64,000 nucleotides of DNA from Elsinoe ampelina. Its lineage: Eukaryota. Position numbers and translations under genes: made by a program. The notes beneath the pieces were generated by a model that was given only the letters and a program-made list of their open reading frames with translations, searched no databases and had not been told where the DNA came from. How positions within the stretch are numbered: position 1 is the first letter of the stretch; each line of letters opens with the position of its first letter. The stretch spans positions 2,545,320 to 2,609,319 of the forward strand of contig ML992501.1 in the NCBI GenBank assembly GCA_010093995.1. Reading direction: 5' to 3'. Positions 1,302 through 44,499 of this stretch are shown here, in pieces.

Positions 1302-1592
1302 CTATTTGCCCTCCAAATCCTTGAGGTCCTTCTCGTCCTTGGCCAATTGCTCCTTTGATGAAGCAATCTTTGCCTTGAGCTGTTTGAGCTTCTCCTGCTC
1401 CTGCTGCTTGATATAAAGGTTCTCCGAAGCTTCCTCGCGCTTGGTGAAGGCATCGCCCTGCGAAGCACCCCCCGATCGTGGCGCACCGGCGTCACCACCA
1501 GCCATTCTTCGAGCTGCTACTGAGAAGGATGCGGTCTGAAGTCGTGGAGCGGAGGAGCGGACGGTGCGGAATGTCCTGAGGGCGGCAGTCAT
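1302..1592 (-). CDS. INH1: Mitochondrial F1Fo-ATPase inhibitor (IATP/IF1 family)
   Basis: Arg/Ser/Thr-rich presequence, then GDAGAPRSGG..GDAFTKREEASENLYIKQQEQEKLKQLK and a coiled coil. A branch site and acceptor (gctgac..ccag) just before the ATG suggest a 5'UTR intron. Confidence 0.9.
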   Translation of the reverse strand: MTAALRTFRTVRSSAPRLQTASFSVAARRMAGGDAGAPRSGGASQGDAFTKREEASENLYIKQQEQEKLKQLKAKIASSKEQLAKDEKDLKDLEGK

Positions 1593-2099
1593 GACTGGAT
1601 GTGTCAGCTATGGTCGACCCCTGGCCGTGTGTAGTTTCGCACTTGTGGATGAGCTTGTGAGCGAGATCTGTGCTTGTTGGAAATATGCTTGCGTGATATT
1701 CTCGAGTTTTCAGGTTGATATGGAGCTGTGGGAAAAGTTATCCTCGTCCAAACTCGAACGAAGAGCTCAGGTACGCACCTCAGCAACGTCAGAGCGGGTC
1801 TAGCCGTGATATTCTTGTGCCCAAAAATCGCGGGATAAGCTTGGCGTTTTAGATAGCTGCACCCACCAAAATCCACCAATATTTGCCCATTTCGTGAATT
1901 ATTCATCCATCTCGCATCCATTTGAAGCCGAACTGGTCTATACTATTAATCCATCTCGGAGGCCAAGTTAGACATCTATCTAGCGCAAATTGGACCCTAT
2001 CTTAGATTACGAACTAGACGCGAGCTAGATTGCTATCTTATAGCGCTATAACTATCTCAGCTATCTATCTAAGATTAATGCGATCTCTAAGCCTTTTTT

Positions 2100-3085
2100 G
2101 AGAATAGAAGGACAATAGATAGCATATATAGGCTTATACCTTACCTCTTACGTAGCGCTATTAGCTAGAGGTGTAAAAATTAGCGTAATACTAGCTATAT
2201 TAAGCTTCTAATAGCCCTCTAAGATAGGGGTTAGCTAAGGACCCTTACTAACGAGATACTTAATAATCTTAAGCGGCTTATAATAGATAAGCCTAATATG
2301 TACTTAGACAAGTACGTAGAGTACCTTAAGCTTAAATAGAGAGTATTAGTGTTATAATCTACTATTAGTTATAGCCTCCTTTCTCGAGATTTACTACTTA
2401 AGGTAATAGGTCGGATTACTAGCTAGAGAGACAAGGGATTATATAGTACTTAGCGTAAGGATATTAAGTACTATTAGAGCAACTAGCTCGTCTTTGTTAA
2501 CAAGGCTATAGTAAGCAAAAGGTGCTTAATAAGGCGCTAAGGTCGTACTACACAAGGCGTACTAGTAGTAGATTAGATAGGCCGGCATATTAGTAAGCGC
2601 TTCTTAGTGCTTCTAGCTATTACTAAGGAGGGGTAGTTAAAGGATCCTATAGTCTTCTAAGGCTTAATTACTACTAAGATCTTCGAGGATTAGTTTTAGA
2701 ACTGCCTAATACTATAGTATATACCTTTTCTAGGCCCGTAGTCAGTAGTAGTACTAGATAATTACTCGATTCACTAGCGTGAAGTAAGCAAAATCGAATA
2801 TAAGTAAGCGCTAAGCTAACACTTTAGGTACTTATATATATTGCTTGTAGTTATAGGGTCGCTATTATCTTCCTACTAGCCTATTTACTAGATCTTAATC
2901 TAATAGAGAAGAGCTTCTACCTATTAAAGTAGTAGATGCGCTATTACTACTACCTTACGCTAGAGTAGCTATTACTAGAGTATTATAGCGATTTTATAGA
3001 CTTTATACAAGAGGCAGCTAATAGGTTTAGCGACAGTATAGATTAGAAGGCTATCTTTAGGAGTTGCGCAGTAAACGTGTAATAT
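2100..3085 (+). pseudogene. RIP-inactivated Tc1/IS630-type DDE transposase (boundaries approximate)
   Basis: Reads LVFVNKA (de-RIP LVFVDEA, ~2488-2507), PFLGP*SVVVLDNYSIH (PFPGPRSVVVLDNCSIH, ~2725-2775) and, after a probable intron, FLLAYLLDLNLIEKSF (FLPAYSPDLNPIEKSF, ~2870-2917). Confidence 0.85.
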
Positions 3086-3227
3086 TAACAGAAGGACTAT
3101 ATAAGCTTATTATTATCTATATTAGTCTTAATATTAGTCTTATTATTACGCTACGTATTATTCTATAGTGCTCTATTAATAGGTGGCAAATACTTACGTA
3201 TAAACCTCTAGAGAGACAACTAGATAA

Positions 3228-3733
3228 CGTCACGAAAACACTTTTCGTGGGGAATTGCATTAGATTGCATTAGATTGCGTTAGAAATGGACCTAGAGGTT
3301 TTTTTGCTTAGAAGTGCTTAGAAGTGAATCAGAACTACGTTTTTCTACTTTCCTGCTTTCAATTTAGAGTTTCTTGGCATATATTATATATTATAATAAA
3401 CTAGAAAAAATTCTACGTTTTTTGATATATAATTTGCTTATGTAATATAACTAGATTATTTTTAGAATTAGACTTAAAGTTTAAAACCTTATTTACTAGT
3501 ACTTAGAGTAGTATTATGTAAGCAAACTATATATCAAAAAATGCAGAATTTTTTCTAGTTTATAATAATATATAGGGAAAGTAAATTTACTCTAAATAGA
3601 CACGTAAAATCGCGAAAAACGCGAAAATAGTACGAAAAATAGTAAGGTAATATAACTCTTTTAGGATTTTCCAACGCAATCCTAAGCAATAAACCTAATT
3701 CCCTAACTCCCTACGAAAAGTGTTTTTGTGACG
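3228..3733. mobile_element. 506-bp foldback MITE with CGTCAC termini and 2-bp AA target duplication
   Basis: TIR cgtcacgaaaacacttttcgtgggga (3228-3253) vs 3708-3733 (2 transition mismatches); AA at 3226-3227 and 3734-3735; internal inverted arms ~3386-3447 / 3512-3573. Confidence 0.85.
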
Positions 3734-5909
3734 AAGGCTACAAAGGCTAAATTGTAGTATAGCCTCTTTAACATTGTTCTTTAATACCTTTTAAAGTAGC
3801 CTTATATTCTAATAGCTATACTTGAGGTCCGTAAAGGTGGCACTAAGCTGTGCTTAGTAAGCCGGATTTTTATGCTTAAGAAACTCGAAAAATTGGTAGA
3901 GGTAGGCTAGAGAGTTAAGTCCCTTAGCGTATAAGGAGAATCTATTACTTTAAGAGTATAGTAACCTTAAACTACGTTAAGCTAGATAATAAGAGTTAGT
4001 AGAGGTATTAGTAGAGGTCGGAAGAGGTGCTATAGGACTATAGCTATTTATAAAGAATTGTTAGTAGAGAGGGGGGGAGTAGAGGGGGTATAGTAGAGCC
4101 CTAGAGAAAGAGAAGAAGAACTAGCCTTTAATACCTTAGCGTTAGTTATGTTGTTTCTAAATCTAGTAATAGGCCTTCTAAATTTGCTTAATTACGTACT
4201 TTAAAGGCTGCTAGATAGTCGAATTGCTAGTGTAGAGGTCCTTACGCTATGTAAAAGCCACGTCCTTAGTAATAGAATAGTATATAATCGACTTAGTGTT
4301 ATCTATAGGGAAGTACGCTACTCGACGCTTATTTAGATAGTACACGCTAGTACAACTCTAAAAACTTCTTATATTAAGCTAGAATTAGTCTCGGAAGTGC
4401 GTCTTAGCCTAGTAATTACGTGCTAAGTTAGTGTGCACCTCCCTAAGGTTGTTCTAGCTTATTTAAGCATCTAGTAGTACGTACTTAGTCGGCGGAGAAG
4501 GCGCTAACTACTAAGATTATAACACCTCTAGAGAAGCGCTTAGCGTGACTAGCGTAACTAGCACCTCTACCGCTAGTGTAATCTATAACTCTCTAACAAT
4601 AAGCTTAAGGTACCGGACCTTAATATTGCTATAAAATTACAGCTGCTACTTAAGTCTATAATAGGAAGAGTCGAGGGCACTAAAGTCCTTAAAGACGGCG
4701 CATAGTTTAAGGGTATTTACACGGTTAAAGAGCTTAGCATTACAGTCCTTAATACGTGACTCGACCCCTATCTCGCTAGTAGTATAGTCGACGAGGCGGC
4801 TTAAATCTAGCTAGAGGCCTAATAGACCCTTAGTAGTGTTCCTAGCACTCTCTACGTTACTAATTATACCTCTATTAAGTTCGGTAATTCACTGCAAAAG
4901 GAAATTAACAACCCGTAGCTACGAGGAGGCTAGTAGTAAAGTCTTCTACTAGCTTAACACTTGCCGACTCCTCGGCGACAACGACATAACACTACGAGCA
5001 CTAGAGAAGTTAGAAATAGAGCGCTAGGTACCTTTCTAACTCTCTAAAGCCCCTTGTAGTGTTTGTTTGTTTATATTACTATCTTATAGTACTCTAAGAG
5101 GTTGTTAAGAGTTACTCTTAGCGTAAGTATAGGTTCTTAGACTATTAGTATTCTTAGCTCCCTTTTTTAGCTATCTTAGTAGAGTCTTTTTAATAGCCTT
5201 TATAACCGGCGCGTTCTTCTCTTTACTAGTTTCTATAGTTGTAGCTTAAGGTTTTCTTCTCTTACAACTAGTCGGCAGTTTCGAATAGATAGGCTTAGGC
5301 TCGAAGGTAGATAGTAGCTTGCTAGCTATTAAGTAGCTAGAGCGACATAAATTACTTAGAGAGTGTTTATTAGGCTCCTCTAATGCTAGAGAGTCTTAAA
5401 ATCGAACGTTCTAAGCACTTAACCGAGTGTTACTATCGCTTAGCGGAGTAGGTGTTTACTCTAAGTTCGAGAGCGGCAACGACCTTCTAGTAGCTAATAA
5501 AGTATACAATTGTATTACGCGTTAGATAGAACGTATAGTTAACCTCTCTTTATTAATCTTATAACTACTCTCTAGCTAAGGAGTTAGAGATTACTTAGAA
5601 CTCTCGATTAAGCTATCTAGTAGTAGTAATACTATAGAGAATTCAAGTAAACTATTTAGAGCGCGCTAATAGCTAATTCGAGCTTAGGTAGAAATATCGG
5701 TTAATAGGGACATTAGTACACCCTTAAATCCTATATTAGTTAGTTATCTAGCTTGATTATAGCTTCATAGGGGGTGTAAACCGTGTTAGGAGTATTATTT
5801 AGGGGTAAATTAGTGTCTACGTCACGAAATCCCTAAGCGTAGAGAGTTAGAATATTAAGTTTCCCTACGTTAGACTAAGTTCAACTACGTTAGGTCGCTG
5901 TAAACGCAT

Positions 5910-5995
5910 CCCACCTACCTGAATTTAGTTTAACACACCTCTACCTACTTAAATTCAGTTTAACGCACTAAACCTACCTTAATTTAGTTAAAGGC
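5910..5995 (+). repeat. Subterminal ~30-bp tandem repeats of the Plavaka element
   Basis: Three copies resembling acctacc/ttgaatttagtttaac.cac. Confidence 0.6.
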
Positions 5996-6169
5996 GTTAG
6001 CGAGATTAAGCGTAGAAGCGCTTTTGTAAGGGTATAAAAGTAGACATTTCCTACTTAGTTCTCTACCTTCCGATATAAGTAATAGACTAAACTAAAATAA
6101 CTTTGTTTTATTATACTCTACTATCTCTACTCTACTACTAAGGGGCTTAGTGTTATTAGCTATAAGTAG

Positions 6170-7750
6170 TTTTATGCGACTATCTAGCTAGGGACTAAGC
6201 TTATTCGCAACGAGAAGTAGCTCTATATAGCTATCGCCTATAAGTTCTACTACCTAGTAACTCGTATCGTTACTAGTGTAGAGGACTCTTACGGAGTAGT
6301 ATTCCTAAGCTAGAGTCGTAAATGTAAAGTAGCGTTCCTAGAAAAGGAGTTTGTCGTAATAGCTAAGACTAGGTATAAGATAGAGTATATATACCTTTAG
6401 GTCTATTCTAGTAGCTATTAGTCTATAGCGGTTATATAGGAGAAGAACGACAACGAAAGCTAGATATACTACGTTAACGGCGGCCGTAGTAGCGAGGTTA
6501 AGGCCTACTCTAAGAAGATTAACACTAATATAGATAGGTATAAGAGATGTAGTAGATATCTAGTTTAGGTTAAGCCGACTTCTTTTAGGTCGACTAACAC
6601 TAACTAGTACACCTACTAGAAGACGTACTTTAGGGCCGCTAAAGAGTAGCTTAAGAAGTAAGGCCTAATAGATCTCGGCATACTCTCGGAGTAGCCTAGA
6701 AGGTAGTACTAGAGACATCTACCCTCTATTAAGGGGAGCTACCTTATCCTTATACCGCCCCCTCGATTGCCTCGCTACATAATATAGCTAGCAAGGAGGT
6801 AACTACTAATAACTATAGGCTCCTTCCCCTCTCTCTCCTTAACCTCCTTCTAGCTTAATACTAGCGTTAGCCTCTGCCTTGCTAGCCTATCTAGTACTAG
6901 TTCCGGCAATTAGAGAAGTAAAGGAAGTAGCGCCTAGGTTAAGCTTGCCGCTCTTAAATATAGTACTATATGTCGAAGACAAGGCCACCTCGAAGCGCAC
7001 TAATCTCCCTAGCGTGACCCGCTGTAAAGTCGTGTCTATAGTAGATAAGGTAGTAGTAGTAACTTCCGCGGAGGACGTAGTAGTAGTAGCTTTAGCTACG
7101 GTGTACCTCTCTATAGCGGAGAGCGTAGATAAGAGTAGAGAGGAGAAGAGAGATATCCCCTACGCGGAGGCAAGTATAATAATACTTTCTTTTACTATAT
7201 CCCGCTACTCTACTATAACTACTACTAAGTAGTAGTAGTAGTAGAGCTAGTAATAGTACGTATAAGGATAATCTAGTTTATAATCTTATAGACAGGATCT
7301 GTCGCACATATTATGTACTAATAATCTTATAAGTAAATACTTACGATCTATATAGATATAGAGAAGACTTTAGGGGACAAGAAAGAGGCTACTCGCTATA
7401 CTAACGAAGATAACGCCTAAGTTTTCTCTCCTCCTAGGCTTAAGCGGCTCTATACCTATATTACGTAGCTACTTACAGTTATAGTTATATACTATATTAT
7501 CCCCTACTCTCTAGAAGGCGTTAAGTAGGAACTCTCTAGCGTTATTACTCTCTATAGAGGTAAGTCCTTCTTCGATAAGCTTCCCGTAGCTAGAATAGAT
7601 ATTAAAATCGATAAGCATCTTTCGGAGAGAGTCTTATAAGCTAGTCTTATCGGGGGACTTATAATAGAGAAGGAGTAAACCTCTTAGATCGCCGACTTAA
7701 GTCTATCTACGAAACTAACCTAATAACTACTTATTTACCTACACTTTTCA
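6170..7750 (+). pseudogene. RIP-degraded cargo ORF, possibly with a Ulp1/C48-like protease domain
   Basis: One frame is interrupted mainly by TAG/TAA of RIP type; IYL*VYSSSY*SIAVI*..IYYVNG de-RIPs to I.L.VHSSGHWSMAV...IYYVDG at ~6389-6481. Confidence 0.35.
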
Positions 7751-7959
7751 CCGCCGTTGTAAAATATGCATAGGATACCTAAACTTCTTAAAGGCCGAGA
7801 GATATCTATAACGCCTCGCTATAATTTTCTAAGCTATTGTAATTAGTATAGGGGTAAACTGGCCCTTTAACGGGAGATCGTTATAAGGCGTCTTATGCTG
7901 CCTACTATATATAGTTTAGCGACTAACCTAATAACGTACAGGTGTAAACTAACTAGCTA

Positions 7960-10900
7960 GAGTAATACCTACGAATATTATCTTATCTTTTTTACCTAAC
8001 ATAGTTTAGTAGTCGACCTAAGCGTACCTAAGGCGAGGCAGTTAACGTAAGAGACGACCGTTCTAGCTACAGAAGAAGTGCTTAAGCTTCGTTAATGCCT
8101 CTTACGCTTGCTAACTACGCCTAGGGATCTTAGCCTCTCTCGTTTAGAAGCCTTAGCTAGGTAGAGCTACTTAGACTCCTACGACTTATTCTATAGCATG
8201 TTATATATGTTAAAGTCGGCCGTATTATTAATATATATCTAGCTATTCGGCCTTGTCTTATCTACTAGCACAACGTGGATACTATAGTAGATTTGCGAAG
8301 TAGAGTAGACACGCCTACTAGTAAGTGTGTTTCGTCTAGCTCTATCGCGTCGATTCGTCTAAGGCTTAATTAGTGTTATACTATGCTCTCGATTAGCTAC
8401 TCTATCCGGCCGAGTAGGCTAGTATAGATCTACTAGCGCTCCTATATAGTATAGGCGTTAACGTCGACTCGATCTACTAGACTAGAAGCTATCCTCTATA
8501 GTTATTATAAACACAATTCGAGCTAGTAACTTACCTTAGAGACTATTAGGTAATACTCTAATAGTGCCTTCGTTATTCGTTGTCTATTCTTATACCTAGA
8601 GCTAGTCTCGCCTCTTATTGCTACGTATCTCTTACTATTTAGTTATACACTAGATAAAGTTTAGTTTGTCTATATTAGAATTATTAGGATTATAGTCGGA
8701 TAGCTTTCTACACTTTAAAGAATAGTAGAACTTAACGTAGAGGTCGCTAACCTAGGAAGAATCTAGTTCGAGTCTATCGGGATCTAGTTTAGCGTCGAAC
8801 TAATTAGAGTATTTAGTTATTAAGCTAGAGCCTATGTCGGCTATACCTTAACGAGCCTCGCGGACAAACACTACTATTACTTGCTACAATAATAGCCTAG
8901 GTAGCATATTAATAAGCGCCTCTAGTTCTCTAACTATACGCTATATAGCCTCCCCCTTAGTACTAGGCTAGCCGAACTAAGAAGTAACATTAACTGTATT
9001 ACTTACGCTAACCGGCGTACTCTAGATCTTAATTAGTTTAGTAGCCGATAGCCTAACTAACTTCGAGGGGTCGTCGAATACTACTAATATATTTGCTAGT
9101 TTAGTGTTATAAGTAGTAACCTAGTCTTCCTATCTAGCCTTCTTATTCGTAAGTTTAAAGGCGTCCTTAATAAAGCGAACATAGTTATACTCTGAATAAT
9201 TAGAATCGAGGCTAGTAACTACTTCGAAATTATAGATAGCCTTTAAAAAATGTATTATTAAGTACTATTTCGGAAAGTTAAAGTTACTCTCTTCTTTTCT
9301 ATCGCTATAGTAGGCCCGGAAGGTCTCTTTATACTTGTTTATTCTAAAGAGCGCGAGGTTAATATACTAGAGTATATTATTGTTGTAGGTCTTATAGTTC
9401 GCTAGTAATATAAAGTCAACTAGTGCGTATATAAATTTAATAGCTTAAGGCGCCTTAACCTTCTTAAGTAATAGCATAAATACTAGGAGTATCTAGCGTA
9501 TAATACTCTTCTACTCTTAACCTATCTATTACTTAACGGCCAAGTAGTACGGGAAGTGTCGAATGCTAGGAAACACTAGTATACTATCGAAGCGCTTATC
9601 GATAATATTAAGCATAATCTTCTTTGCCGAGCGCTAGTAGCCTGTTCGCTATATAGTCTCTCTAGCCCTTATATACCGTAGTAATTTATATATAGGTATT
9701 AAATTCTAGAGCAATTTTCAAATCTAGTATAGGACGTACATTAAAACGCCTTTAAGAAGTTAGTATAGAATATCTAGCACTATCGCGTAGTAAATATTAG
9801 TACACGGAAGATCCTACGTAAAGTAACTAACCTTATAAACCTAAGAGCTCGTATCTAGCTTTTCGCTCTACTACTAACTCTCGCGTGCCTCTCTCTATAA
9901 GCGCTATTATTGCTACGTAGAGTAGTAAGTTCGGAACGGTGTAGTAACTACTAGGTCCTCTCTCTCGTCTTTGCTAATAAGGTAGCTTATACAATAATAC
10001 AGTAACTTTACACCTGTTATAGTGACCTATTCGGCGTAATTCGTAGGTATAGCGGCAAGTATAGAGAAGCACCTCCGCCTCTTTCTATCTATATAGGAGA
10101 TTATTTTGCTCTCTCTTAAGTAACAATCAACGACGGGGTTAAAGATTTTCTTTATATAAGTGTAGTAGATCTTCTTCTTAACGACATTTCTACTGTCTTT
10201 AATAATAGAAAGTAAGCCGATTAGTAACTACCCCGGCTAGTTGTTGCTATTACGTGCTTCTACCTTTAGGTTGCCTAATAATAGATAGACGGCGTGTGCT
10301 ATAAGATCCTCTTAATAGTTTATTACCTAGGTCTAATCACTCGCGACGATTAATGGGATAATAGTAGCTCTAGCTATCCTAAGTCGCTCTTGTACGTCCT
10401 ACTACTAGTCGCCGCTTACTATTTCGGTGTATACTTGTCATAGTAGCTTACTCTCGACAGCTTCTATAAAGACTCTATATAGGCTATAGTCTATGTCTAC
10501 TACGAAGCTACAATAACCGAGTAAGAAGCGTATCGCTAGAAGAATATCTAGATACTAGAACGTATGTCTTTTAGGCCCACGATTAGTGTTTAGTATAAAG
10601 CTTAAGGTCTGCTAGCTATTAATACCTCCGGCCGTATCTAAATTTTCTATCTTCTCTACTAGTTCATTCGTAGTTCGCTAACTAAGGCTCTCTACTAGAG
10701 GTTATATACGTAGGTCTTTAAGTAATTACGTAATTACGGCTTTACTAAGTTTTTCCTTAACGAGCTACTAGGCAAGACTAGCGTCTATGCTATTAATAAA
10801 GGCTTCCTTTAGTTAAGTATCGCCTAACTAATTATAATTTAGTTTATTATATATGTCGGTGTACATGTTATGCACTTAAGGAGATCTAGATAACGTTAGT

Positions 10901-11630
10901 CGACGTAGACTAAGCATAAACTATATCTATTACTAACTCTTCGCTACTAGCCGGTATACTAGTAACTGTCTCGAACGTAATACGATCGGATGTAGCTCTA
11001 CTAGACGAGGACAATCTCCTAGCACTCCGCCCTATAGATGTACTGCTAGTTATGCTTGCTGTAATTACTTACTCTTCCTCGTGCGTACCTTCCCTTATAA
11101 CCTCTTCTATGCCCTTCTCTTCCTTATACGCGATGTGGCCGAGCCTACCGCTACTATCGCTGTCTACTTTACGTGCTAGAGGATAATAGTCGAGGTTAGC
11201 AAAGAGACTAAGGGGATCGTCCGCTATAGTATGCTATATAGTAGGCGAAGAGGGGAGGACACCCCGCGCTAACTATAGACTATTGTCTCTACCTCGTTGT
11301 TTAGTTCGGTTCTTAGTCCTTGTAGTTAGCGGCGAAGTTAAGTAGACTACTAGGTCATTTAGCGTCGGCGGATTATGCTATGCATTGCTACTAATACTAC
11401 GTCGTTAGTCTTTATTAGATAGTAAGCGCTCTTCTCTATTAGAGAAGAGAGAGTTATTACTAGCGTTATCTTCGCGGAGATATCTATTAGTACATTAATC
11501 TAGTAAGACTTACGCCTTATTACTTATTAGTAGCTCTCTCCTCTAGTAATACAGTAGATGTTAGACGAGGCCTCTACTAGATTATATAATCTTTCTATAG
11601 GCCGAGCATTTAGTAATACGCTTTAGCATA
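7960..11630 (-). pseudogene. RIP-inactivated Plavaka transposase (boundaries approximate)
   Basis: Ordered motifs after de-RIP: FWY.DIL.AIRFLLG (~10520-10560), YTEMVSGDWWWDVQERL..GATIIPLIVASDQTQ..AVYLSLGN (~10270-10435), PDILHQLLKGV (~9745-9780), IDKRFDS.PVFPGIRHF..QWTG (~9520-9605), FNFPKWH..H (~9255-9285). Confidence 0.9.
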
Positions 11631-11779
11631 TTAGTTCTTATTATTTAATATTTACATTTGTAGTTAGAATTAGCACTTCGGATTTGTAACGATAGTAGGA
11701 AGTAAGACGTTTAGGCGCTATATTATATTAGTTTACCTAAAAGATAGTTTAACATATACTAGCACCTAAATCGGTCTAC

Positions 11780-14700
11780 TAAACTAAGGAATTATATTCT
11801 TAGGTAATATAGTTAGGCTATTTATCTAGTAATATTAATTATTTCTCTAGATTAACCGTATTCTTCTTCGCTATAGCTTGTACGCGTGTCTATATCTTAG
11901 CCCTCTACTTCTCTATTTCTTCGTAAATAACTTTCTATACTATTAACGGCCTACCCTATCTACTATTAAGCCACTTCTAAGGCCTATAGAATAGAGCTAT
12001 TAGCTTTATTATAAACGCCTCTATGTGGTTAGCCTTCTAAGACTTAATATTCCTACGGACCTAGGCGAGACACTAGAGGACTAATCGTAGCACCGACGCT
12101 ATATTAAGCAAGATTATAGTGTCGAAGCGGTTAAGGTTTAGACTAGTCTTAATCGCCCTACCCTAAGCAATTAGGATCCTTAAACCTTCTAGCCTCGGGG
12201 GCTTAATAAACATATTATTAAATATAGCTACGTTAACAATGTCTATACGGGAAGGTATAGGTGTTATTCTATAGTAGATAACAACTATATTAGAATCCTT
12301 ATCGATCTTAATTGCTTTACCGTCTAGGTGCTACTCGAGCTATTTTAGATACTATGCCCTTGTTAGTAATAACCTAATTAAACTAAATAGTTTAAACTAA
12401 CTATCGTAGCGACTGCTAGCACTAAAGGTATAAACGTATAGACGATTACTTGCCTCTTTAACTACTTCGAGTAGGAGACATTCTACTTAATAATCTCAGA
12501 AATAACACTACGAAGGACTTATATCTAAGGACTAGCGTGAATCTTGTCTATATGCTACTATAACGCTGTCGCCGAGGAGTTACGTATAATATCGTAGGCG
12601 TACTTAATAGTGTAGTTGCTAAACTCCTCTTTAACCGTAGGGCTATTCTAGAAGATATCTATAAGAGCGAGAAACATAGAGAAAAGTAGTAGCGGCGTAA
12701 CTAGGCTTAGTATTTGCTCCTTAGTCTTCTTATTAAGAATCGTCTCTAATATAACTTTAGACTTATTAGGTTTATCCTTTTACTTCTCGATCGCCTCCTA
12801 TATACTCTTATCTATATCCTTTTCGATCTTCTTCTATGTAGCTATAAGACTATAAAGATACTTATTCTCGATAGTAATCTCTAGGTCGAATGTTAAATGC
12901 GGTAGGACTCTAACTACTAGCAGACCGGGGGTAGTATCGAATAGTTTCTAGACATAGTCTACATTTATCTTAATAAGAATTTCAGTAAGAATGTAGCCCT
13001 ATTTAGTAACTGTTATAGAGATCTCTACTATAAACTCTATACTCCTCTTTTTGTTAAACTTACTAGAGTCGTTATTCGCCTTATACTATTTGTTAATTAC
13101 GTAGGCATAGTCCGATGCCTCTTAGAAGTTAAGCTTATTAGCGATAGCTCGTCGAGTAGCGTCTAGTTCTTTCTTCGGCCTTACTTAAACTAGGTTGTCC
13201 TTAGACTTAGTTAGCTTCTAACTAGATTTATAGATATAGGTGTTAATATATTATCCTATTCCTTTTCTATTTTTAAGCTTCTCTAACCTAAAGTCCTTAT
13301 ATATAGTAGCCGTTAAGAACGCTACTACGTTTAAGCACTTAACAAATAGCGTCCCGCTTATACCTAGTATAAAAGGCCTCTCTAGTAGCATTCCTAGACA
13401 GGACTAGGTCTACGTCTTCTAGCTAGTGACCTAGTGGAACTCATTGAAGATAACAGCGGCCTAATAGATAGAGATAGCCCCCTTCTTCCTCTTAGCTCCC
13501 CTAGGAACAAAGTTCTAGTTATTAGTATCTACGTTGTCTTTGCTAAGGAAGTAGTTAATTATAGTATCGCAAGTAGTAAAGAAGAACTAATTATTTATCT
13601 ATGCTTTCTTAGGGTACTTATTACGTATATCGACGAGGTCTATAACTCTAATAGTGTTAATAGGCTTACTAGTCTTTCGATCTTTTAGCTAAGTCTCCTA
13701 TTTATAGTAGCCTTTAGGTAGATCCTCTTCGTAAACTAAAGAGTCTATGTTATATACGTTACTATACTCTGTCTTTTACACTTCTTTGTTTAAATTTCCC
13801 TAGCATAGGACGATCTTTGCCTTAGGCATAAACTTACGTGTCTCTTACGCTTACTATTTTATTACGTTTAATTCTCTAAGAATTAGATTATAGCTAATAG
13901 TATCGGCAGAACTAATAGTTAGCTATAGGTTGTCGACAAGTGTCGTTGCCTTCTAGTACTTGCTCTATTACTCCTCGGATATAGTAGCATATCTACAATC
14001 CTTTAGCACCTCTTTATTTAAGAGTAAAAGGAGATAGAGTATAAAGAGGCCTATCGGAGTCTTCCCGAATTCTATCTTATATGTAAACACAAATACTAGG
14101 TAGCCTTCGAGGTACTTCTTAATTGTAATAAGCGCTAAGTACATCTATGCTGCCTCGACTAGATACTTCTTGTTCTAATACTAATAAAATACACTAGCGT
14201 TCGGTAAGTAAATGTCTTTCTTAAAGCCTATAAAGTTATAGCCTCTTTCCTAGAACTCTTCGGACTAGTAATTGATTCTAGTACCTACGGGGATAAAGCT
14301 CTAGTAGGCTAGATCATTACTAGTTTACTTGTCGTTATTGTTGTTAATAGTATAAAGTTCGACGAAGTTAGAGCTGCTAAGGGTCTTATTAAACGTGCAT
14401 TTTGCTAGTGCTAGTATAGGTATAGATAGCTCCTTAGGGACTAGCGGAATATAGTATCTAGCTAACTCTTTGCTTAGTATAACTATAAAGGGATATTTAT
14501 CTATGTCTCGGCATTGCTTGTAGTATTTATCTTCTATCACTCGAGTAGGGCGCTACTCGATAGTAGGATTATCGTCGGCTAGCGGTAGAGGAGTAATTCG
14601 CTTTTTAGGGGTAGAGTTACGTAGTAGTATAACCTTAGTCGGAGATAGAGGAGCTAGAGGATTATCTTCTTCTTTACCCTCGACTAGGGCTAATAGCTTC

Positions 14701-15820
14701 CAACTATTACGATACTAGAGGGGGTCGACTAAGTATGTTAGTAAACACCCGAGTTAAACTAAGTGTTAAACTTATAAAGTACTTTAGTAGAAAGTTTCTT
14801 AACGAGATTCGTACTAGGCGTAAGATAGAAGAAGATTAGGTTAGAACCTTCCGTTAGGGAGTTAACATAGTTAATAATAGCGGCACGTAGGTCGTAATTA
14901 TCGATAATAGGGAGGATCTTATATAGCTCTATATAGTCTATCTACACAAGTATAATGTTATTACTAATTAATTTCTTCTCCTTTAGAAATAGCCTAATTT
15001 TGTTAAGGCTATATATATTTAGATCGTAAGTGTCCTTATCTCGTCGATAGTACTATAGACTTAACGCCTATAGACGATATAAATATTCTCTTTTTATAAT
15101 TATGCCCGGACTAACGTCTAAATACTTAACGCTTATAAACTTAATAATAGTTTTGTCGATGATACTCTAGACTAGATAGGACGTGTCTTCTAGCATTTGC
15201 TACTAACGTATAGGCTAACTAGTGCAGCTATTAAGACCTATACCTACGAGTCCGCTACTAAGTATAGAAGTCTCTAATCTTTCGGAGAGTCTACTATTAG
15301 ACTAGGTAGTAGAGTAGCGCTTTCTAATCTACTTCTTAGGATATACTCTCTCGTCTACTTCGGTCTAGTTCTTCTCGTTCCTAAGCTCTTACGCCTTAAT
15401 ACTAAGGACGAAATCCTTAATAACATTACGGCCGGATATATCGTTTATAACGCCGACGTTCTTCTTAAACTAGTCTTAATCGTAATAGTTTAGTCTCCTA
15501 AAGAAGATCTCTATATAGCCTTACTAAGGGTCCTATAGGTTATTCTTAATGTTAATTATAATCGTAGCTATATTAGCGTTGCTAGTCTAAGGTTCCTTAT
15601 AATCTAATTCGAAAGACGTATAGGTATCCTTATATAGTTCCTATGCTCTTACGCGTGCGGCGGTGTATATATCGTCGTCCTAGTTAAAGAATTTAAGGAA
15701 GAATGCCTTAAGCTTAATGTTCTAATCGAGCTATGCTTAAATATCTATAGGAGATCTCTCGTAGAGCGGAATTTCGCTTATAGCCTAGCTAGCGCCGTTA
15801 GGCTAATTCTTAGACATATT
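11780..15820 (-). pseudogene. RIP-inactivated SNF2-family (SF2) helicase/ATPase carried by the Plavaka element (boundaries approximate)
   Basis: Motif I FTYKIEFGKT -> FAHEMGFGKT (14058-14087); Ia QWAQETRKFMPKAKIVLCWG (~13797-13857); II VIFNEFH -> VIFDEFH (13434-13454); III ISGTL -> MSGTP (~13347-13362); V ILIA.GRAI.TGLNLNRFDT.ILLD and VI QCLARVRR (~12050-12180). Confidence 0.8.
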
Positions 15821-17094
15821 ATATACGTTTATAAGCTTAGTATATACTATAAATAAGGCTTTAAATAATGTCTAGTAAACAGATCGAGTAGGTACGATAG
15901 ATGTTAAGTAAGAGATCTTACGAAGGTATAGCGTGTTTATAAGTTTAGAAGAATTAAGGAGAGGATTTATTAACGTAGCGAGTCTATACACTTTGTAATA
16001 TATGTCTAACTAAGACTTGACTAAAAGAAGAGATATCCTATTTAAGAGCACTTAAAATAGAGATTAAAGAGGTTAAAGAAGTGCTAAAGAACTGCATAAG
16101 TTACTTGTTTATAGCTAAGAGAGGGTAAATAAAGATAAATAATAGCGACAAGTAAGAAGAGTAGTAACCTAAATTTAGTCGATTTAGGTCGGGCCCTAAA
16201 CTAAGTACGTAGGTAGTGTACTAGATACAGCGTACATGTAACAGTAGATAACTTAGTTTAGACACTAAACTAATAGTAACTATAGTCCGTACACTTAGTT
16301 ACCTTTCGTTTTATATAATGTGTAAACTAAGGATACTACTATTGTTATTAGGTACTTAACGTAAATAGATTAAACTATATTTTAGTAGCGGAACTAAATT
16401 CGTATACGAGGCATAAATAGAATATAATTAGACAGTATATAGCGGAATAAGGGACATAGTATAGCTTATAGACGCTAGTAAAGGAATAAAGAAAGTTATA
16501 TACTACTATCTAATTGTCTAAACTTTATAATTGCTATATGCGAAGCTAAGGGGTAGAGTAGAGTAATAGCTATATATTCCGCATAATAAGCAATTAATAG
16601 TACATTTCACAAAATTATATATACGCTTTATTCCTCGCCTAGCTCCGCTATAGAGGCAATAGCGAAGGAGGACGCTACGGGTATAGCTCCGCCTAAGACG
16701 CCTTCTACTATAAGCTTATAGCTCGAAGGAGGTAGTAGGCGTACCCTTACCTACGATATGCTTCTATATTTCCCCCTTTGTTACACTAGTTGTAACTCTA
16801 CTATCCTGTCCTAAACATTCTTATCTTATAAGGTAGGCACTCCCTAGTAGACACCTTCTTCTCTATTCTCTTCGTATATGCTAGAACCCCTAATAGCGTA
16901 GTTAGCAGCGTAGGAGAGCGCTCTATAATAGATTCGTTTAGTCGTAGCTACTAGGCGGAGACAGTATTAGATTCTACCGATACTACGTAGCTAGTATAGA
17001 GAATACTATAGAGGAAGGTAAAGACGGCGAAAGGGAGAGAGCCGTTAAAATCTCCTACGTATATAGAAGCCTATATCGGCGCAGTCGGCAAGAT

Positions 17095-17405
17095 AGAGAG
17101 GTATATTAACATAGCTTTACTTAGGTATAACTACTAGGTAGAGACGGTGTTTAATCCTACTAACACTACGCTATTAGTGTAGAGGATGCTATAGGGGGCA
17201 GTAGTAACGTCGAGAGAGAAGAAGGTGTCGAGGTCTCCCTATATATACTTAGGCGCGCGGCGGCGTAGTCGGCATAATAGAGAGGTACACTATAATAGAT
17301 TTGCTTAGGTGTAACTACTAGGAGGAGACAGTGTTTAATCCTACTAACACTACGCTACTAGTATAGAGGATACTAATAGAGGCGGTAGTAGCGGCGAGAG
17401 AGAAG
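17095..17405. repeat. Two diverged copies of a ~125-bp segment about 183 bp apart
   Basis: cttaggt.taactactagg..gagac.gtgtttaatcctactaacactacgcta..agt.tagaggat at ~17120-17188 and ~17304-17371. Confidence 0.8.
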
Positions 17406-20400
17406 TCGATATTAACGTCGCTATTATAGATACGACAATAGATAATTGTAGTACACTAGGCAGGGGCGTCGCTTTAATAGATAGTTAGCTATTGTCGAGG
17501 TTAGATAGAGGGGAGAGTATAGGTTACACTAGTAACGCTAACGTCTATAATTAGGTTAGTGTAGGCAGAGAGTACAAACTAAGGCGTTATTACGCATTAT
17601 ATATACAGTGTAGCTCTGTCGCTACAGATCGAGTATATAATATAAATATAAGGAGATAGAGTTAGATACGTCGAACTTTAAAATTTTACAAGTTTTAGTT
17701 TAGGCTAACTAATTATAACTAAGTAACACTTAGGTATATACCCCTTATAAACTAAGACTTACGACTTCTAAGGCTAATCTATCTCGAGCGACACTCCTAC
17801 CTAACTGCTAACTATACTGCCGCTTCCCCCTTTCCTCTCTACTCTCCTTAGCTACACTTACATCTACTTCTTATTAACTAGCGATGTACTTAATCGAAGC
17901 TATTAAGTAAGCCCTCGCCCTCGACGACAAAGGCTATAGAGACTTATATAGTCTCTTAGAGGATATCATAGTAAGTAAAGGCATAGTTAGAAGAACATTT
18001 AGGTTAATTTCTAATAGGAGAAGACTAGAGAAGAAGATGCTTCCGGTAGTACTAGACAGTAATAACATTCGATGTACGTTTCGGCATACGATAGAGCTAT
18101 TAGAGAGCGGCGACAGTTAAGCTACCTTCTATACTCTCGTCTATAAGATAAGTACGAACTTTAGACGTTAGTAGGTATAGTTACACTTAAGATTATATAA
18201 GCCTAGAGGGACATAAAATAATACTAACACGCCTACCTCGATTAAATCCTCGGATCGCTAATTGTAATTATAAGCGCCTTCGCTCTCTAATCGATTAAAC
18301 AATATGCTATTAGTAGTTCGTAAGGATAGAGAGATACGCCCTGTCTACTCGATTAGAGATCTCCTACTTATACGTCGTAAAGCTATAGCTAACATGTCTA
18401 AAGAGAACGTAGATATCGAGTTTAATTAGCTAAGAGTAATATCGATTATAACGGACTACTATATATACAATAGGCAAAGCGATATAATAGGGTAGAAGGA
18501 CGATAGAACGCTATATTTCGCTACGATAGAGAATGCTATTTAGTTTAAGGCTGTTATCTTGTCTAAGATATTACATAGTTCGCCTCTATATATCCTAATA
18601 AGGCGACGAGATTAAGGGAAGCATCTAGCGGAGACAAGTATAAAGCATAATAGTCCGGTAGTAGACTAAGTCGAACTAAAACGTAGTAGGTAAGCCCTGC
18701 TAAGCCGTACCTACTACTAAACCCTAAGGATTTAGTTTAACTAGCACGCTTTATCCTTCCTTACCTTCTAACTAGATCGACCTATAGAATTATTCGTATA
18801 AGCTATCTTTCTATAATTAATTTATTTAGTCTAGTAGTATCCTTATATAAGGCTCCTAAGTATAGATATTAACTACACCGACCTTGTTTCTTTAGTAGCT
18901 AACATCTAGACTATAGAATTAAGCACGTAGGCTTCTCTTATTTGTTTAGGTATAGAAGTATAGTCTTCCGACGGTCTACCTAACTAGTTCGGGCCTTAGC
19001 TTAGAAGCTCTCTACTAGACACGTAAGAAGAAGAGTATAATTACGTCGGTAGCTAGTAAAAGCAACATAGGACTCGGTGGCCTAAATAGCTTAATAGATA
19101 GCAACTCTTAGAGGAAGACATTACACTTATATAGTAGAAGGTAGGCTAATTACGAATAATAATAGAGGAAAACGCTAGCGCGATTAGACAACTATAGTAA
19201 GAGAACTTTATACTTAGGGAGCATATTAGTAAAGCTTTTCGGGGGTTTAGTGTTGCCTCTACGGACCTTACTAGGGAGTTTAGGGGCTTATTTAGATTAG
19301 ACAAGAGTATACGGCGCTATACTAATAGTACTACTCTACTATTACTAAGTATAGTTACCGATAGCTAATCGACGCTCGCCTCTCGTAGTAATATAATTAG
19401 TAGATAATAAGTATCTCCGTCTAGCGTACCCTATTTAGACACACTAGACTACGAGGTAGAGAGCGATTAGTGCTTTTAACACTTAGAAGACGTTCTACTT
19501 AGTAAAGGGGGGGCTACTAGCGTAATTAGTAAGGGAGCTATAGTATAAATTATACTACCTATCTATATATAGAAGAGCTAATATCTATAGTCTCTCGAAT
19601 TAGTTTATAATTGCTTAGTATAAGTTTAATCTACAATTTCTCTCTATAATATTCTACCTCTAGTATTGCTTAACGTAACTATAAATGCCTTGTTTAGTTT
19701 AAGTATTTAGTCTAAGTAAGTTCGAGCATCTTTCTTTTTTAGTTTAGGTTCTAATAATTAGCACGCCGCGAGTTAGAACTAGCTATAAGTTCAATTTAAT
19801 ACTCTTGCTAGTTACAATTTCTGTAGAGTATAGGCGGATATAACTAGATTTAATTAGAAGAAAGTCGCGTACTCTAAACACTAAACTAAGCCGTTATCTA
19901 ACTTAAACTAACGCTAAGTTACTATAACTCGTATAAGACGACTATTCCCGTTATAGTATACATTGTTAGGGCCCGTCGTGCTAAACTCTCTTATACCTAT
20001 ATACCTCTTAACTAAAACGATTAGAATAAGTAATGTCCTAGTTACGTTAGCGTCGGCATAGCTTAGGCTATAAGGCCGATAATTATTACAAAGATGACAA
20101 TTTAAGTTAGGTAGACTAGAACGAAGAAGAGTATAGCTTTATTAGTAAGGAGAGCTAGGCTAACTATATAGGCCGCAAATACAATATTAAAGACAAAGGA
20201 GAAGGTATAGATCGGACATCGCTACGCTTAATCTAAGATTAAGAGAGCTATAAGCCGATAAGAATAGCCTAGCGTTAGCCTCTATACTAGTTCGGTTAGT
20301 AAAACGACATTTATAGGACATACTAAACAAGTATAGTAACATCTTCGTAGTAGTATAAGACAAATTATATATAAGTACAGCTATTAGGTAGAATTATAAT

Positions 20401-23046
20401 ACAATGTTACTAACGTTAAGTAATCGATAGCTCCTTATGCGAATTATAAGGCACTAGCGCTCGATCCGTAAGTAGCTACTAGTAGCTTATCTATAGAGGA
20501 CAATAGGTAAATACTCTTCCGCAATTATAGCTAGTAAAGTATATTACTTACTAAAGTTAATTACTTGCTAATAACGTCTAGCTCCGAGAGACGCTCTACT
20601 ATAGTTATAATAACATTACACGATTAGTAAGCGAGATACTCTAGCGCGAATAGCTTATATAAGGGCTAGAGGATAGCGAGCTACCGAATTAGGCACGTAA
20701 GCTACTAGAGGAACAAATGTATTAATATAAGGATAGTAATCTAGTATACAATAGATGTACTTATTAATTAACTACTAACGTATAGCAGCGGAAACGCTTT
20801 AGAAGTTCTTTAATATATAAAGCCTTCCGAGTAGCCTTTATTAGACGTAGAGGCTTAGCTATAATAGATAGCACTCGCTATTACTTCTAGGAACTAACAC
20901 TCTTTCTCGTCTTCTCCCTTCTAGTAACAATTTATATACTCTTAGTTAAGTAAGCAAATAGTGTTAAGTTCTACTTACCTAAGGGAGTAGTAGTGTTCTA
21001 TCGTATTAAACCCTTAGAACTCGATTATGTCCGACTAAGTATTTAAAATAACTTTCTTACGTAGATTAGCTAGAGATAAGCTCTTATTTTTCGTTAGCTA
21101 AAGCTTAGCTTTACTAAGTGTATCGAGAAGAATAGGCTTACTATTATTATAGTAGTATCGAATATTTCTCTTTATACTACTACTATAGAAGGGTTATTAG
21201 ATAAGAAGGATATATACTAAAGGTGTATAGATACCTTCCTATTTTAGTTTAGTCTATCTAAATTTAAACTAACCTATAGAGAAGTTACGTGCTTAAGGGC
21301 GGACCTAATTGTAAAGGGGATAGCTATAATATAGCGCCGGCACGTAATGCTTCTACTAAGTAGCTAGTATAAGGTAGGCTTAATCGTCCTATTAGCTTTT
21401 TAGTCTTAATATAAATAGATAGAGAAGAGCGTTAAGCTAATAATAAACACTTAATCGCTGTATATTAAGGTACTACTTAGTTCGTGTATAGGAACGGAGT
21501 ACTAAAACACTATATAGCTACTTCTATAGTATAAGCGTAACTAGCGTAAGTGCCTAATATAGACAATAACCTTGCCGTAACTATAACTACAACTGCGACT
21601 ACTCCTAAACTAGGTTAGGTTGTAGTTAGAGTATATAAGGAGGATTAATAGACTTATTAACAACATTCTTATAGGCTACTTAATTATACACGTACTATAC
21701 TATCCTAAGAACCTAATAGCGATTTACTAATAATAGAGGCATAGTAGAAGGATTTCTTAAATATATAAACATAGATAAATTTTTTGTCCTTTATACGTAA
21801 GGAGTTTAGAGGCTTATTACGTAAACTAGTATTATAGTACTAAATAGCCTAGGGGCGTAGTAGTAGTAGCTTAGTAATAGAAGGGGATAGACAACTACTA
21901 GATAGAGATGCTTTCCTAGAACTAATAAGAAGGGATATTAGATCGTAAGTAAATAATATATACATTGTTATTAAGAGGAGCGTCACGTAGAACATTAAGT
22001 AATATATATATACTCTTAATAATCTCGTATCCTTACTAGACGTAATAGATAGTTAATAAGGCTTTGTGTGTTTTATAGACATACGTGATACATACTACGA
22101 GGTAGGTAGTCCAAAATCGAGCTGATTGCCTTTATAACAACGAACTAATGGATCTGTGAACTAAGAGACACCCTAACTAAGACGAACTAATGCGTCGGGA
22201 TGCGCTATACACCATCGCATTTTGCGTGTGCTACGTTTGGTAGGTTCTTGCAAAAAAAAATGCGTTGCTTCCAAGCAGGACCCAGGGGTGACTAGGGAAT
22301 TGCATCGAACTGAATCGGACTGAGTTAGTTGCTTGGAAGCAGTCCAACGCAGCTCCCTAGCGTTAGGGATTTCGTGACGTAGTCACGCAAATTCGCGGAG
22401 GGCTTGCCAAGCTTATCCCGCGATTTTTGGGCACAAGAATAGAGCCGAAACAGTCCGAGCTCCAACTGGCGATGACGGTGGGAGAGACTTGTTGCTCCGG
22501 CCCTCAACACTCCACTCGATATCGCACCCATTGAGTGACCACTTCTTCACCACCGTGCCTGTACATATACATCCTCTTTCTCAACCAATTCTGAGCACTC
22601 TGCTTCTTTCATCGAGCTGTCGCCGCACTCGCCACGCGTGGGAACAGCGACAAATACTTTTTTTTGACCCCTCCGAGAAATAAAGCGGGGCACTTTCCTT
22701 CAATTCGACGACACATCACAAAGACACGCCACGACAGAACAAGACCATTGAGGTTCAGGAACGCAGAGAGGGATAAAGTAGTACATGTGAGTATAACCTC
22801 TTTATCTTTGCTGCCGCCGCCTCGCCGAACATCGCTGCCCTGGAGATCTCGCCGACGACGCTTCACCGCTGAATAATCCTGGATATCTGGATTGCATAAA
22901 GGACCATGGACAGCTCCTCCAAGCTTTCATCGACAGCACGTGTTGAGGATAGCACCAATTCAGCGACGGATGAATCACAAGAAAGGTACATTGCAACACA
23001 TGACGAGACTAACACGCTAGGAGAGAACATCAGCTTCAACTACAGA

Positions 23047-24789
23047 ATGGTCGGACGTAAGCCACCATCCCGCAAGGGTAAGTATTATCTATCTAGGCGT
23101 TCAGAACGGATGCTGAATATCGAACAGGATCCATGGCCGATGTGCCTCGCGACTTGCTCGACGAAATCACTCGCCTGGAGGAGCTCTTCAAGGTCCCGAC
23201 AGAGAAGTTGAAGGAAATTACCGATCACTTTGTCAAGGAAATGATCAGAGGTGAGTTCGATGACCATATAAGGTAGTTCATAGCTCGAGCTAACAATTTC
23301 ATCTAGGCTTGTCAAAGGAGGGCGGAACCATTGTAAGGATACAGTGGACCGGTCATCTGATCAGGCTGACATTCCTAGCCCATGAACCCGACTTGGTGCA
23401 TGAGCTTCCCCACTGGTGACGAGACTGGAACGTTCCTCGCCCTCGACATGGGTGGCACAAACCTTCGTGTCTGTGAGATTGTGCTTACCGACGAGCCTGG
23501 AGAGTTCGAAGTCATCCAGTCGAAGTACCGCATGCCTGAGGAGCTCAAAACAGGGACAGCGGACGAGCTGTGGGGATACATTGCCGATTGCTTGCAGCAA
23601 TTCATTGAGTACCACCACGAAGGGGAGAAGCTTGATCAGATGCCTCTCGGTTTCTGCTTCTCCTACCCTGCCACCCAGGACTACATCGACCATGGTGTCC
23701 TCCAACGCTGGACCAAGGGTTTCGACATCGAAGGAGTTGAGGGCAAGGATGTTGTGCCACCATTCGAGGAGGCTCTCAAGGAGAGGGTGAGTTCTTCGTA
23801 ACACAGGCAAAGTCACCGGCTGACATGTCTAGGGCGTACCTATCAAACTCACCGCGTTGACCAACGACACCACCGGCACACTGATCGCCTCCAGCTATAC
23901 AGACCCAGAGATGAAGATTGGTTGTATCTTCGGCACTGGCTGCAATGCTGCCTACATGGAGAACTGCGGATCCATTCCAAAGCTTGAACACATGAAGCTT
24001 CCAGCCGATACGCCCATGGTCATCAACTGCGAGTGGGGTGCTTTCGACAATGAGAACAAGGTCCTTCCCAGGACTGAGTACGATAAGATCATCGACAGGG
24101 ACTCTCCCCGTCCAGGACAGCAAGCTTTCGAGAAGATGATCGCAGGGCTTTACCTTGGTGAGGTCTTCCGTCTTGTTCTTGTGGATCTGCACGAGAACAG
24201 GGACTGCAAGATCTTCGAGGGTCAAGACATCAGCAAGCTCAAGAAGGCATACTCGCTAGATTCTGGATTCCTTGCTGAGATCGAAGAGTGAGTAGAACCA
24301 CCAACGAAACCATCACTCAGCTGACAATGTCCTAGGGACCCCTTCGAGAACTTGGAAGAAACCCGCAACCTGATCCAGAACACCCTAAGCATCACCTGCA
24401 CCAAGCCTGAGCTGGAGTTGATCCGTAAGCTTGCGGAACTTATTGGTACTCGTGCTGCTCGTCTCTCAGCGTGTGGTGTCGCTGGTATCTGCAAGAAGAA
24501 GGGATGGGAGACTGCACATGTCGGCGCCGATGGTAGTGTCTTTAACAAATACCCTCACTTCAAGGCCCGTGGAGCTCAAGCTCTGAAGGAGATTCTCGAC
24601 TGGCCTGCAAGGAGGAGGGGTCAGAAGGAGGACCCGATCGAGATTCTGCCCTCTGAAGACGGTAGCGGTGTTGGTTCGGCGCTCATCGCAGCTCTCACTC
24701 TGGAGCGTGTGCAGAAGGGTAATCATTATGGTATTCGAGATGCCGCCGGCATGGTGGAAGGCACCGCAGCAGCCAAGTCTTCGGCTTAG
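23047..24789 (+). CDS. HXK1: Hexokinase (multi-exon)
   Basis: MVGRKPPSRKGSMADVP N-terminus; LALDMGGTNLRV, LGFCFSYP, WTKGF, NDTTGT, GCIFGTGCNAAY, INCEWGAFD, FEKMIAGLYLGE and EDGSGVG motifs; several GT-AG introns. Confidence 0.95.
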
Positions 24790-44390: not shown

Positions 44391-44499
44391 TAGCGAACAT
44401 AATACCTATATATTCTCCTAGAGTTTATAGACTATAATTTTACCCCCTTTATATCGCCTCCTCTAGTCGATATTAAATCGTAACTATACGTACTACGAA

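Follow-up and report, generated by a model that had tools for sequence, protein, structure and literature searches.

A RIP-inactivated Plavaka-family transposon, probably full length, with a putative SNF2-like ATPase gene in an Elsinoe-like Dothideomycete

A 64,000-nucleotide stretch of Elsinoe ampelina DNA (contig ML992501.1 of assembly GCA_010093995.1, positions 2,545,320 to 2,609,319; the window) contains a 16,560-bp element, at 5820-22379, that is very probably a full-length, dead cut-and-paste transposon of the Plavaka family (CACTA/EnSpm-related, 'CMCT' clade) in an Elsinoe-like Dothideomycete. The element inserted as a single unit with a 2-bp target duplication, as contigs from the same organism that retain the empty site prove, and it is dead, both of its identified genes having been filled with stop codons by repeat-induced point mutation (RIP). 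Upstream of the transposase gene lies a second gene that sequence likeness identifies as that of a very divergent SNF2-like ATPase and that seems to be a companion conserved within the lineage rather than captured cargo. The genes flanking the element are ordinary eukaryotic housekeeping genes. A PRP1 orthologue among the flanking sequences is 90% identical to that of Elsinoe australis, 87% to that of Sphaceloma murrayae and 82% to that of Myriangium duriaei, which bears out the ascomycete host proposed when the element was first noticed in the sequence (the initial annotation).

Ends of the element and insertion as one unit

The ends are marked by a 17-bp terminal inverted repeat (TIR), CGTCACGAAATCCCTAA, which occurs just twice in the window with up to two mismatches allowed; 0.02 matches are expected by chance and none of 100 shuffles reached two. 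Likeness between the ends continues imperfectly for about 10 bp beyond the exact repeat, the tips read 5'-CGTCA..TGACG-3' (exact tip CGTCACGAAATCC) and the dinucleotide TA stands on either flank, as the initial annotation had stated. Its further observation that the pair bounds most of an AT-rich block also holds, GC content being 0.32-0.40 from about 2000 to 22000 and 0.48-0.63 elsewhere in the window. The RIP that it had invoked is strongly evident in the dinucleotide indices, with TA/AT at 1.98 and (CA+TG)/(AC+GT) at 0.30 inside the element, compared with 0.54 and 1.28 in the flanking genes. The terminal features are these:

5818..5819: left copy of the target-site duplication (TSD), TA, placed by the joint from 5817 to 22380, where two letters fit either side
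5820..5836, plus strand: left TIR, 17 bp exact, with imperfect likeness on to about 5846
5913..5989, plus strand: subterminal 30-bp tandem repeats, 2.6 copies, containing the motif RATTYARTTYRA; candidate transposase-binding sites (found with Tandem Repeats Finder, TRF)
22305..22316, minus strand: right-end subterminal motif, inverted relative to the left-end copies (motif search)
22363..22379, minus strand: right TIR, inverted partner of the left 17-bp TIR
22380..22381: right copy of the TSD, TA, from the flanking sequence and the empty-site joint

Evidence for insertion as a unit comes from Logan contigs of four public runs, aligned to positions 3001-23000 of the window at a likeness of at least 80%. 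One run, X1, in which 0.77 of the sampled words occur, possibly derives from the source sample. Its 3,825 aligned contig pieces cover all 30 of 30 bins and, among the differences listed, show 1,811 transitions to 119 transversions; from this coverage and this excess of transitions it follows that the element, or its parts, is multi-copy and RIP-diverged in the organism. The element lies within another TIR element (the host element, described below), and two X1 contigs represent copies of the latter that are empty. One runs from 5817 to 22380, skipping 16,562 letters with two letters fitting both sides, whilst the other, which is of higher depth and equivalent to about four copies of the host element, runs from 5818 to 22382 with a G between. 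Empty host-element copies thus read ..GTGTC-TA-GTCACG.. or ..GTGTC-TG-GTCACG.., the first being the sequence that the initial annotation had predicted for an empty site. Since these are empty sites in copies of the host element, the 16,560 bp entered as one unit and 2 bp were duplicated. The TG form suggests that the TA at this insertion may itself be a product of RIP, and no preference for a TA target is therefore shown. The large element could also be read as having 19-bp TIRs and a 3-bp duplication, GTC, but this reading is ruled out by the two-letter empty sites and by the AA/AA flanks of the 506-bp relative described below.

The remaining runs (X6, X7 and X3) yielded only 36-129 aligned letters, with no empty site from another strain among them, and are uninformative as to presence or absence of the element. 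X6 and X7 look transcript-derived: their contigs match exons only, at 22658-23060, and one passes from 22786 to sequence near 23031-23060, where the gene to the right of the element has an intron.

The 12-bp motif RATTYARTTYRA, when searched for with tolerance of RIP-type transitions, has four matches in the window where 0.26 would be expected: at 5922 and 5952 on the plus strand at the left end, at 22305 on the minus strand at the right end and internally at 18729 on the plus strand. Subterminal transposase-binding sites in CACTA-like elements are usually laid out as repeats inverted between the two ends, and the subterminal copies of this motif are candidates for such sites.

The transposase gene

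The initial annotation had recognised a Plavaka transposase relic on the minus strand and had named the Pfam Plavaka profile as a check on it. In a Pfam scan of 5820-22500, translated in six frames with X for each stop codon, PF18759 (Plavaka) matches at E 5.7e-33 (114.9 bits with a cut-off of 26.3) over positions 4-318 of the 325-position profile, in a single frame of nucleotides 10671-9739 of the minus strand, and no other Pfam family is matched at E <= 0.1. Two features are distinguished here:

8134..10803, minus strand: Plavaka DDE transposase relic, 890 codons in one frame with 66 in-frame stops, delimited by alignment to the 934-amino acid open reading frame (ORF) of metagenomic locus L001
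10890..11490, minus strand: possible upstream (N-terminal) transposase exon in another frame, coding-like only (codon log-likelihood 14 per 150 codons)

Database searching with the transposase returned four proteins, three of them strong matches (P0001-P0003; E 1e-105 to 1e-124, 32-34% identity), including one from the Dothideomycete Polychaeton citri, and one of them weak (E 3.9e-15, 24% identity). In tblastn the three strong proteins map as single segments across 10545-8128. The intact ORF of L001, which among the intact relatives found stands closest to the transposase, aligns to 10803-8134 at E 1.6e-130 and about 33% identity, and comparison with it is informative about the manner of decay. 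Of 60 aligned stops in the relic, 38 lie opposite W, Q or R in the intact relative, residues that make up 15% of that protein, and we therefore recognise a RIP footprint in the transposase. The positions of the two motifs, C(2)C and H(3)H, can still be recognised: the relic reads YCISY and XYLIIH where the intact relative has HCTMC and FHAMSH, so that one residue in each pair has changed, in the direction of RIP; the catalytic E was not located.

The transposase is smaller than the 3.7 kb or so first assigned to it, homology spanning about 2.7 kb (10803-8134), with an exon on to about 11490 indicated by codon signal alone. The putative exon at 10890-11490 shows no homology to any of 47 metagenomic Plavaka loci or to the L001 ORF, and L001 has a zinc-finger-like ORF in the corresponding position.

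These 47 loci were found by scanning metagenome contigs for Plavaka relatives. When 1800-22500 is compared with them by tblastx, only the transposase core is matched, within 8173-10599. Two of the loci contain apparently complete elements of 5.9 and 6.7 kb (L006, 133-6039, and L009, 34-6712) with exact 16-bp TIRs, CATCAGCAAAAGTGTG, and a PlavakaB-type tip, and tips starting CATCAGCAAA are found in at least five further loci. The dinucleotides flanking L006 and L009 do not match each other.

A SNF2-like ATPase gene and the rest of the interior

Upstream of the transposase the coding content of the minus strand was assessed with a codon-usage log-likelihood model trained on the RIP-mutated transposase frame. 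Three stretches, each in a different frame (15990-14490, 14790-12390 and 12540-11640), score as high as the transposase itself, and nothing comparable is seen in 16,000-22,379. The interior can be divided as follows:

11878..12177, minus strand: candidate for the C-terminal lobe of the ATPase, continuing it in a different frame, a weak match (E 0.014, positions 823-922 of a 957-position hidden Markov model, HMM) within the coding-like stretch 12540-11640
12378..14282, minus strand: divergent SNF2-like (SF2) ATPase/helicase relic, 635 codons with 42 stops, detected with a four-member HMM
14490..15990, minus strand: coding-like stretch upstream of the ATPase, perhaps a third gene or an N-terminal exon (log-likelihood 15-38 per 150 codons)
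16000..22362: about 6.4 kb free of coding signal or homology (Pfam, codon model) and, to judge from the contigs, repeated in the genome like the rest
16894..17405: internal tandem array, period about 183 bp, about 2.8 copies (repeat search)

A phmmer search with the translation of 14900-12201, stops again read as X, gave three weak matches (E 2e-6 to 1e-4), all of them proteins with SNF2-rel_dom/ResIII domains and one also with Helicase_C; one further member of the family was then found. An HMM built from the four proteins has a single match in the six frames of the whole window, at 14282-12378 on the minus strand (E 2.2e-32, 99.9 bits, positions 113-707 of 755), which validates the codon model for this stretch. 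The relic has GKT at the Walker A position and NEFH at the DExH position, the D having become N. Intact relatives score 47.8, 38.7 and 34.5 bits against Pfam SNF2-rel_dom (cut-off 24.9) and 22.5 and 21.4 bits, below the cut-off of 23.5, against Helicase_C; the relic itself has no Pfam match in the six-frame scan. The family profile weakly matches Snf2/Rad54, Rad5 and CHD1L chains (E 4.5e-4 to 4e-3). By these likenesses the second gene is classed as encoding a very divergent SNF2-like ATPase.

Metagenomic locus L001 bears on the relationship between this gene and the transposase. Its contig carries the C-terminal 210 residues of a protein of the same helicase family, ending at position 635 and 94.8% identical to P0127, and the transposase ORF begins on the same strand at 2207; order and spacing match those in the element. 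Because the pairing is kept across transposases that are only about 33% identical, we take the ATPase gene to be a companion gene rather than chance cargo, and it does indeed look like one conserved in the lineage.

At another metagenomic locus, L005, a Plavaka transposase is preceded on its own strand, at a distance of 0.8 kb, by the ORF of a 961-amino acid SF1 helicase (1471-4353; AAA_11/AAA_12, E 1e-27 to 5e-41). Contig L011 (5492-8374) represents the same locus, 52 of 52 letters outside the putative left end being identical in the two, and CATCACCAAACCC, considered as the left element end in L005 and L011, is unusable for that reason. This helicase is a second one beside a Plavaka transposase, unrelated to the first, and the borders of the element fall outside the contigs.

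The coding-like stretch at 14490-15990 has no Pfam match, and searching PDB sequences with 14492-15994 gave no match at E <= 1. Within 16,000-22,362 no convincing internal TIR or long terminal repeat (LTR) pairs were found, and a joint from 17009 to 17475 (a 465-bp skip) reflects variation in copy number of the tandem array among copies. The initial annotation had counted at least four relic reading frames besides the transposase and spoken of a multi-gene cargo. Of those frames one is established by homology (14282-12378) and one is only coding-like (15990-14490); the multi-gene cargo shrinks to one identified extra gene with the look of a lineage companion.

The host element and a 506-bp relative

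The element into which the transposon inserted is present as 1810-5819 together with 22380-22441. It has perfect 36-bp TIRs, TATTCTTGTGCCC..., is RIP-mutated internally and is multi-copy in the organism; the Plavaka element sits 24 bp inside its right TIR. No Pfam match was obtained at E <= 0.01 in four of the six frames of 1810-5819, and a TA duplication of its own is possible. The relevant features are:

1810..1845, plus strand: left TIR of the host element, 36 bp, 100% (inverted-repeat search)
3228..3733: 506-bp non-autonomous element resembling a miniature inverted-repeat transposable element (MITE), inside the host element and flanked by AA/AA
22406..22441, minus strand: right TIR of the host element, 36 bp (inverted-repeat search); a unique 8,699-bp contig begins at 22413

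The 506-bp element is a miniature relative of the large one with a 2-bp duplication, AA. The TIRs of both open with the same 10 bp, CGTCACGAAA, a box resembling CGTAGGGAG is common to the two, and a joint from 3225 to 3734 seen in four contigs (508 letters skipped, two fitting both sides) is its empty site. At 3359-3600 there is a long internal inverted repeat, whose 94-nucleotide arms match at 80% (blastn gives 192 bp at 78%), and most of the 506-bp element is therefore able to fold back on itself.

Elsewhere in the window a second RIP-type AT-rich block, at 43121-48797 (GC 0.38, TA/AT 2.01), is enclosed by inverted repeats of 60 bp that are 88% identical. This 5.7-kb TIR element is distinct from the Plavaka element, to which its DNA shows no similarity, and no Plavaka protein matches it. 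Genes in the neighbourhood, at 32053-33408 and 33543-37304, include one for a fusion of a 2OG-Fe(II) oxygenase (2OG-FeII_Oxy_2) with a GRF zinc finger and one for a 1,254-amino acid NPHP3_N and ankyrin-repeat protein with an NLR-like layout.

Origin of the element and alternative explanations

The history that we favour can be put briefly. A 16,560-bp unit entered an older TIR element, 24 bp inside the right TIR of the latter, duplicating 2 bp of target. On one strand, from 5' to 3', lie the coding-like stretch, the gene for the divergent SNF2-like ATPase and the transposase gene, and RIP afterwards riddled the two identified genes with stop codons. Having bound to the TIRs and to the subterminal motifs, the DDE transposase would have cut the element out and made a 2-bp staggered break in the target, and the 506-bp relative could have been mobilised by the same transposase or a sister of it. 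The ATPase may have been a lineage-specific accessory that aided transposition or countered chromatin silencing, and in this it would be comparable to the TET/JBP and PAG genes that accompany other Plavaka elements.

Several observations weigh against parts of this account. Each form of the large empty site is represented by one contig only, and other copies are seen only as contigs of about 300 bp, with no second full-length copy among them. Summed contig depth is uneven, at about 1,700 over the ends and about 12,800 over the transposase, so part of the interior may come from further repeats or subfamilies. Neither of the terminal types published for Plavaka is matched exactly by the tips CGTCA..TGACG, which are one transition removed from type B. 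The pairing of helicase and transposase is known from only one other locus, L001, on whose contig the element ends are absent, and the parts of the element outside the transposase have no tblastx match in the 47 metagenomic loci. What is said of the function of the ATPase we infer entirely.

The alternative that fares best, though we consider it unlikely, is that the element is a composite: a smaller Plavaka, with transposase, helicase and ends, would have been enlarged by nesting of unrelated repeats, mainly in 16.0-22.4 kb, and 16.56 kb would not be its native size. The blankness of 16,000-22,362 in coding signal and homology would suit such a history, as would the several-fold variation in contig depth, with its local peak at 17,675-18,341, and the smaller size of relatives, published fungal Plavaka consensus sequences appearing to be about 9-10 kb in the supplement to PMC12730594 and the metagenomic elements being 5.9-6.7 kb. 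Yet internal TIR or LTR pairs are only weak and chance-like, no frame of the element has a Pfam reverse transcriptase, integrase or second transposase domain, and the sole internal skip joint listed is the 465-bp length variant of the tandem array. Nor do loose contig ends help: the best supported, at 11980 and 13112 (six contigs each), were considered as borders of nested elements and set aside, their loose letters being RIP-type variants of the window sequence and so derived from RIP-diverged copies. Giant Plavaka elements of 17-19 kb are, moreover, known elsewhere (10.1101/2025.02.11.637652).

It is also improbable, in our estimation, that the SNF2-like gene is accidental cargo, that is, a gene that this copy or family took from the host on a single occasion and that serves no function as a companion. 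CACTA-type elements do capture host fragments, and the helicase family is rare, with four clusters found. The main text of Kojima (2025; PMC12730594) likewise gives no helicase for Plavaka, using the word 'helicase' once, of Helitrons. Against capture, L001 has its helicase upstream of a Plavaka transposase that is about 33% identical to the one studied here, on the same strand and at similar spacing. The relic is of full-domain length, collinear with the HMM and in one frame, rather than a fragment, and the window contains no intact helicase paralogue. A Starship-type or other giant cargo-carrying mobile element, in place of a DDE transposon, can be dismissed as next to impossible: the 16.6-kb size and ascomycete host would be in keeping, but Starships are defined by a tyrosine-recombinase (DUF3435-type) captain, no such recombinase is seen in the six frames, where Plavaka is the only Pfam domain, and short TIRs, a 2-bp duplication and a DDE transposase fully explain the insertion.

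Taken as one transposon copy, the Plavaka element is ordinary and inactive, and the SNF2-like ATPase is the more interesting lead. We go so far as to propose, at roughly even odds, an ascomycete Plavaka lineage in which a gene for a highly divergent SNF2-family ATPase has been conserved upstream of the transposase as its companion; at a sister locus an SF1 helicase takes that place. Were this true, Plavaka elements would have turned repeatedly to helicase or remodeller accessory genes, beside the TET/JBP and PAG cassettes, as a means of opening or protecting chromatin for transposition. Accessory genes are rare in DNA transposons and the known Plavaka ones act on DNA or chromatin marks, a theme that a remodeller-type companion would fit. 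The empty sites, for their part, support applying to RIP-active ascomycetes the Plavaka rules for ends and duplications that were drawn up for mushrooms (a C-R-T-C-A-type tip with a 2-bp duplication), and the locus illustrates how one family and its miniature derivative build an AT-rich RIP island beside housekeeping genes.

Comparison with known Plavaka and related elements

The initial annotation had supposed the termini, TSD length and full architecture of Plavaka to be undescribed. These and the giant gene-carrying members of the family are already published. Kojima (2025; Biology 14:1741, PMC12730594) reconstructed complete Plavaka families in Agaricomycotina, giving PlavakaA a 2-bp TSD and tips TGT..ACA, PlavakaB a 2-3-bp TSD and tips CATCA..TGATG, and CACTA a 3-bp TSD and tips CAC..GTG. 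Plavaka families of 17.4-19.1 kb with tandem repeats and three accessory genes, PAG1-3 (N6-adenine methylase/SET, ParB-like/2OG oxygenase), are reported from the red alga Bostrychia moritziana (preprint 10.1101/2025.02.11.637652), and a paper on Spirogyra extends Plavaka to the Archaeplastida (PMC13519894). In the literature searched, whose full sequence supplements could bear on both points, we found neither a Dothideomycete Plavaka lineage with CGTCA..TGACG tips nor a SNF2-like or other helicase as an accessory gene of Plavaka or EnSpm; an ascomycete lineage combining these tips with a helicase companion gene thus seems to be new.

By its transposase the element belongs with Plavaka, matching PF18759 itself and PF18759-bearing proteins at E 1e-105 to 1e-130. 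Its duplication agrees, exactly two letters being ambiguous at the empty sites of both the 16.56-kb element and the 506-bp relative. Published Plavaka consensus sequences starting TGTCGGAAATCTC.., CATCGGGGCAAATCCCGG.. and CATCAGCAAAACGG.. resemble the CGTCACGAAATCCC of the element (PMC12730594, supplement).

With PlavakaB, as described in PMC12730594, the element shares a PF18759 transposase and a TSD whose 2 bp fall within the 2-3 bp of that type. CGTCA differs from CATCA by one transition and is followed by an A-rich stretch, and the TIRs of L006 and L009 (CATCAGCAAAAGTGTG) belong in the same comparison. Unlike PlavakaB, it resides in a Dothideomycete ascomycete, measures 16.56 kb rather than about 6-10 kb, has been inactivated by RIP and has a SNF2-like ATPase gene in place of a TET/JBP gene. 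With PlavakaA it shares the 2-bp TSD, and consensus starts TGTCGGAAATCTC and TGTCGGAAAAATCC resemble its own xGTC..GAAATCC, whereas the published TGT..ACA contrasts with CGT..ACG.

Short TIRs, subterminal repeats, several genes laid out on one strand and a DDE transposase are common to it and to the EnSpm/CACTA elements of the CMC superfamily, the C(2)C and H(3-4)H motifs of such transposases being represented in the relic by recognisable but altered positions. The EnSpm/CACTA elements part from it at the ends, the element having neither CAC..GTG tips nor a 3-bp TSD, and in Pfam, which returns Plavaka and no other family at E <= 0.1. The giant Plavaka elements of red algae, as the preprint describes them, are like it in transposase, in their 17-19 kb size class, in the presence of accessory genes and an internal tandem array and in being known mostly as degenerate copies; they differ in host kingdom, in being free of RIP and in carrying PAG1-3 where the present element carries a putative SNF2-like ATPase.

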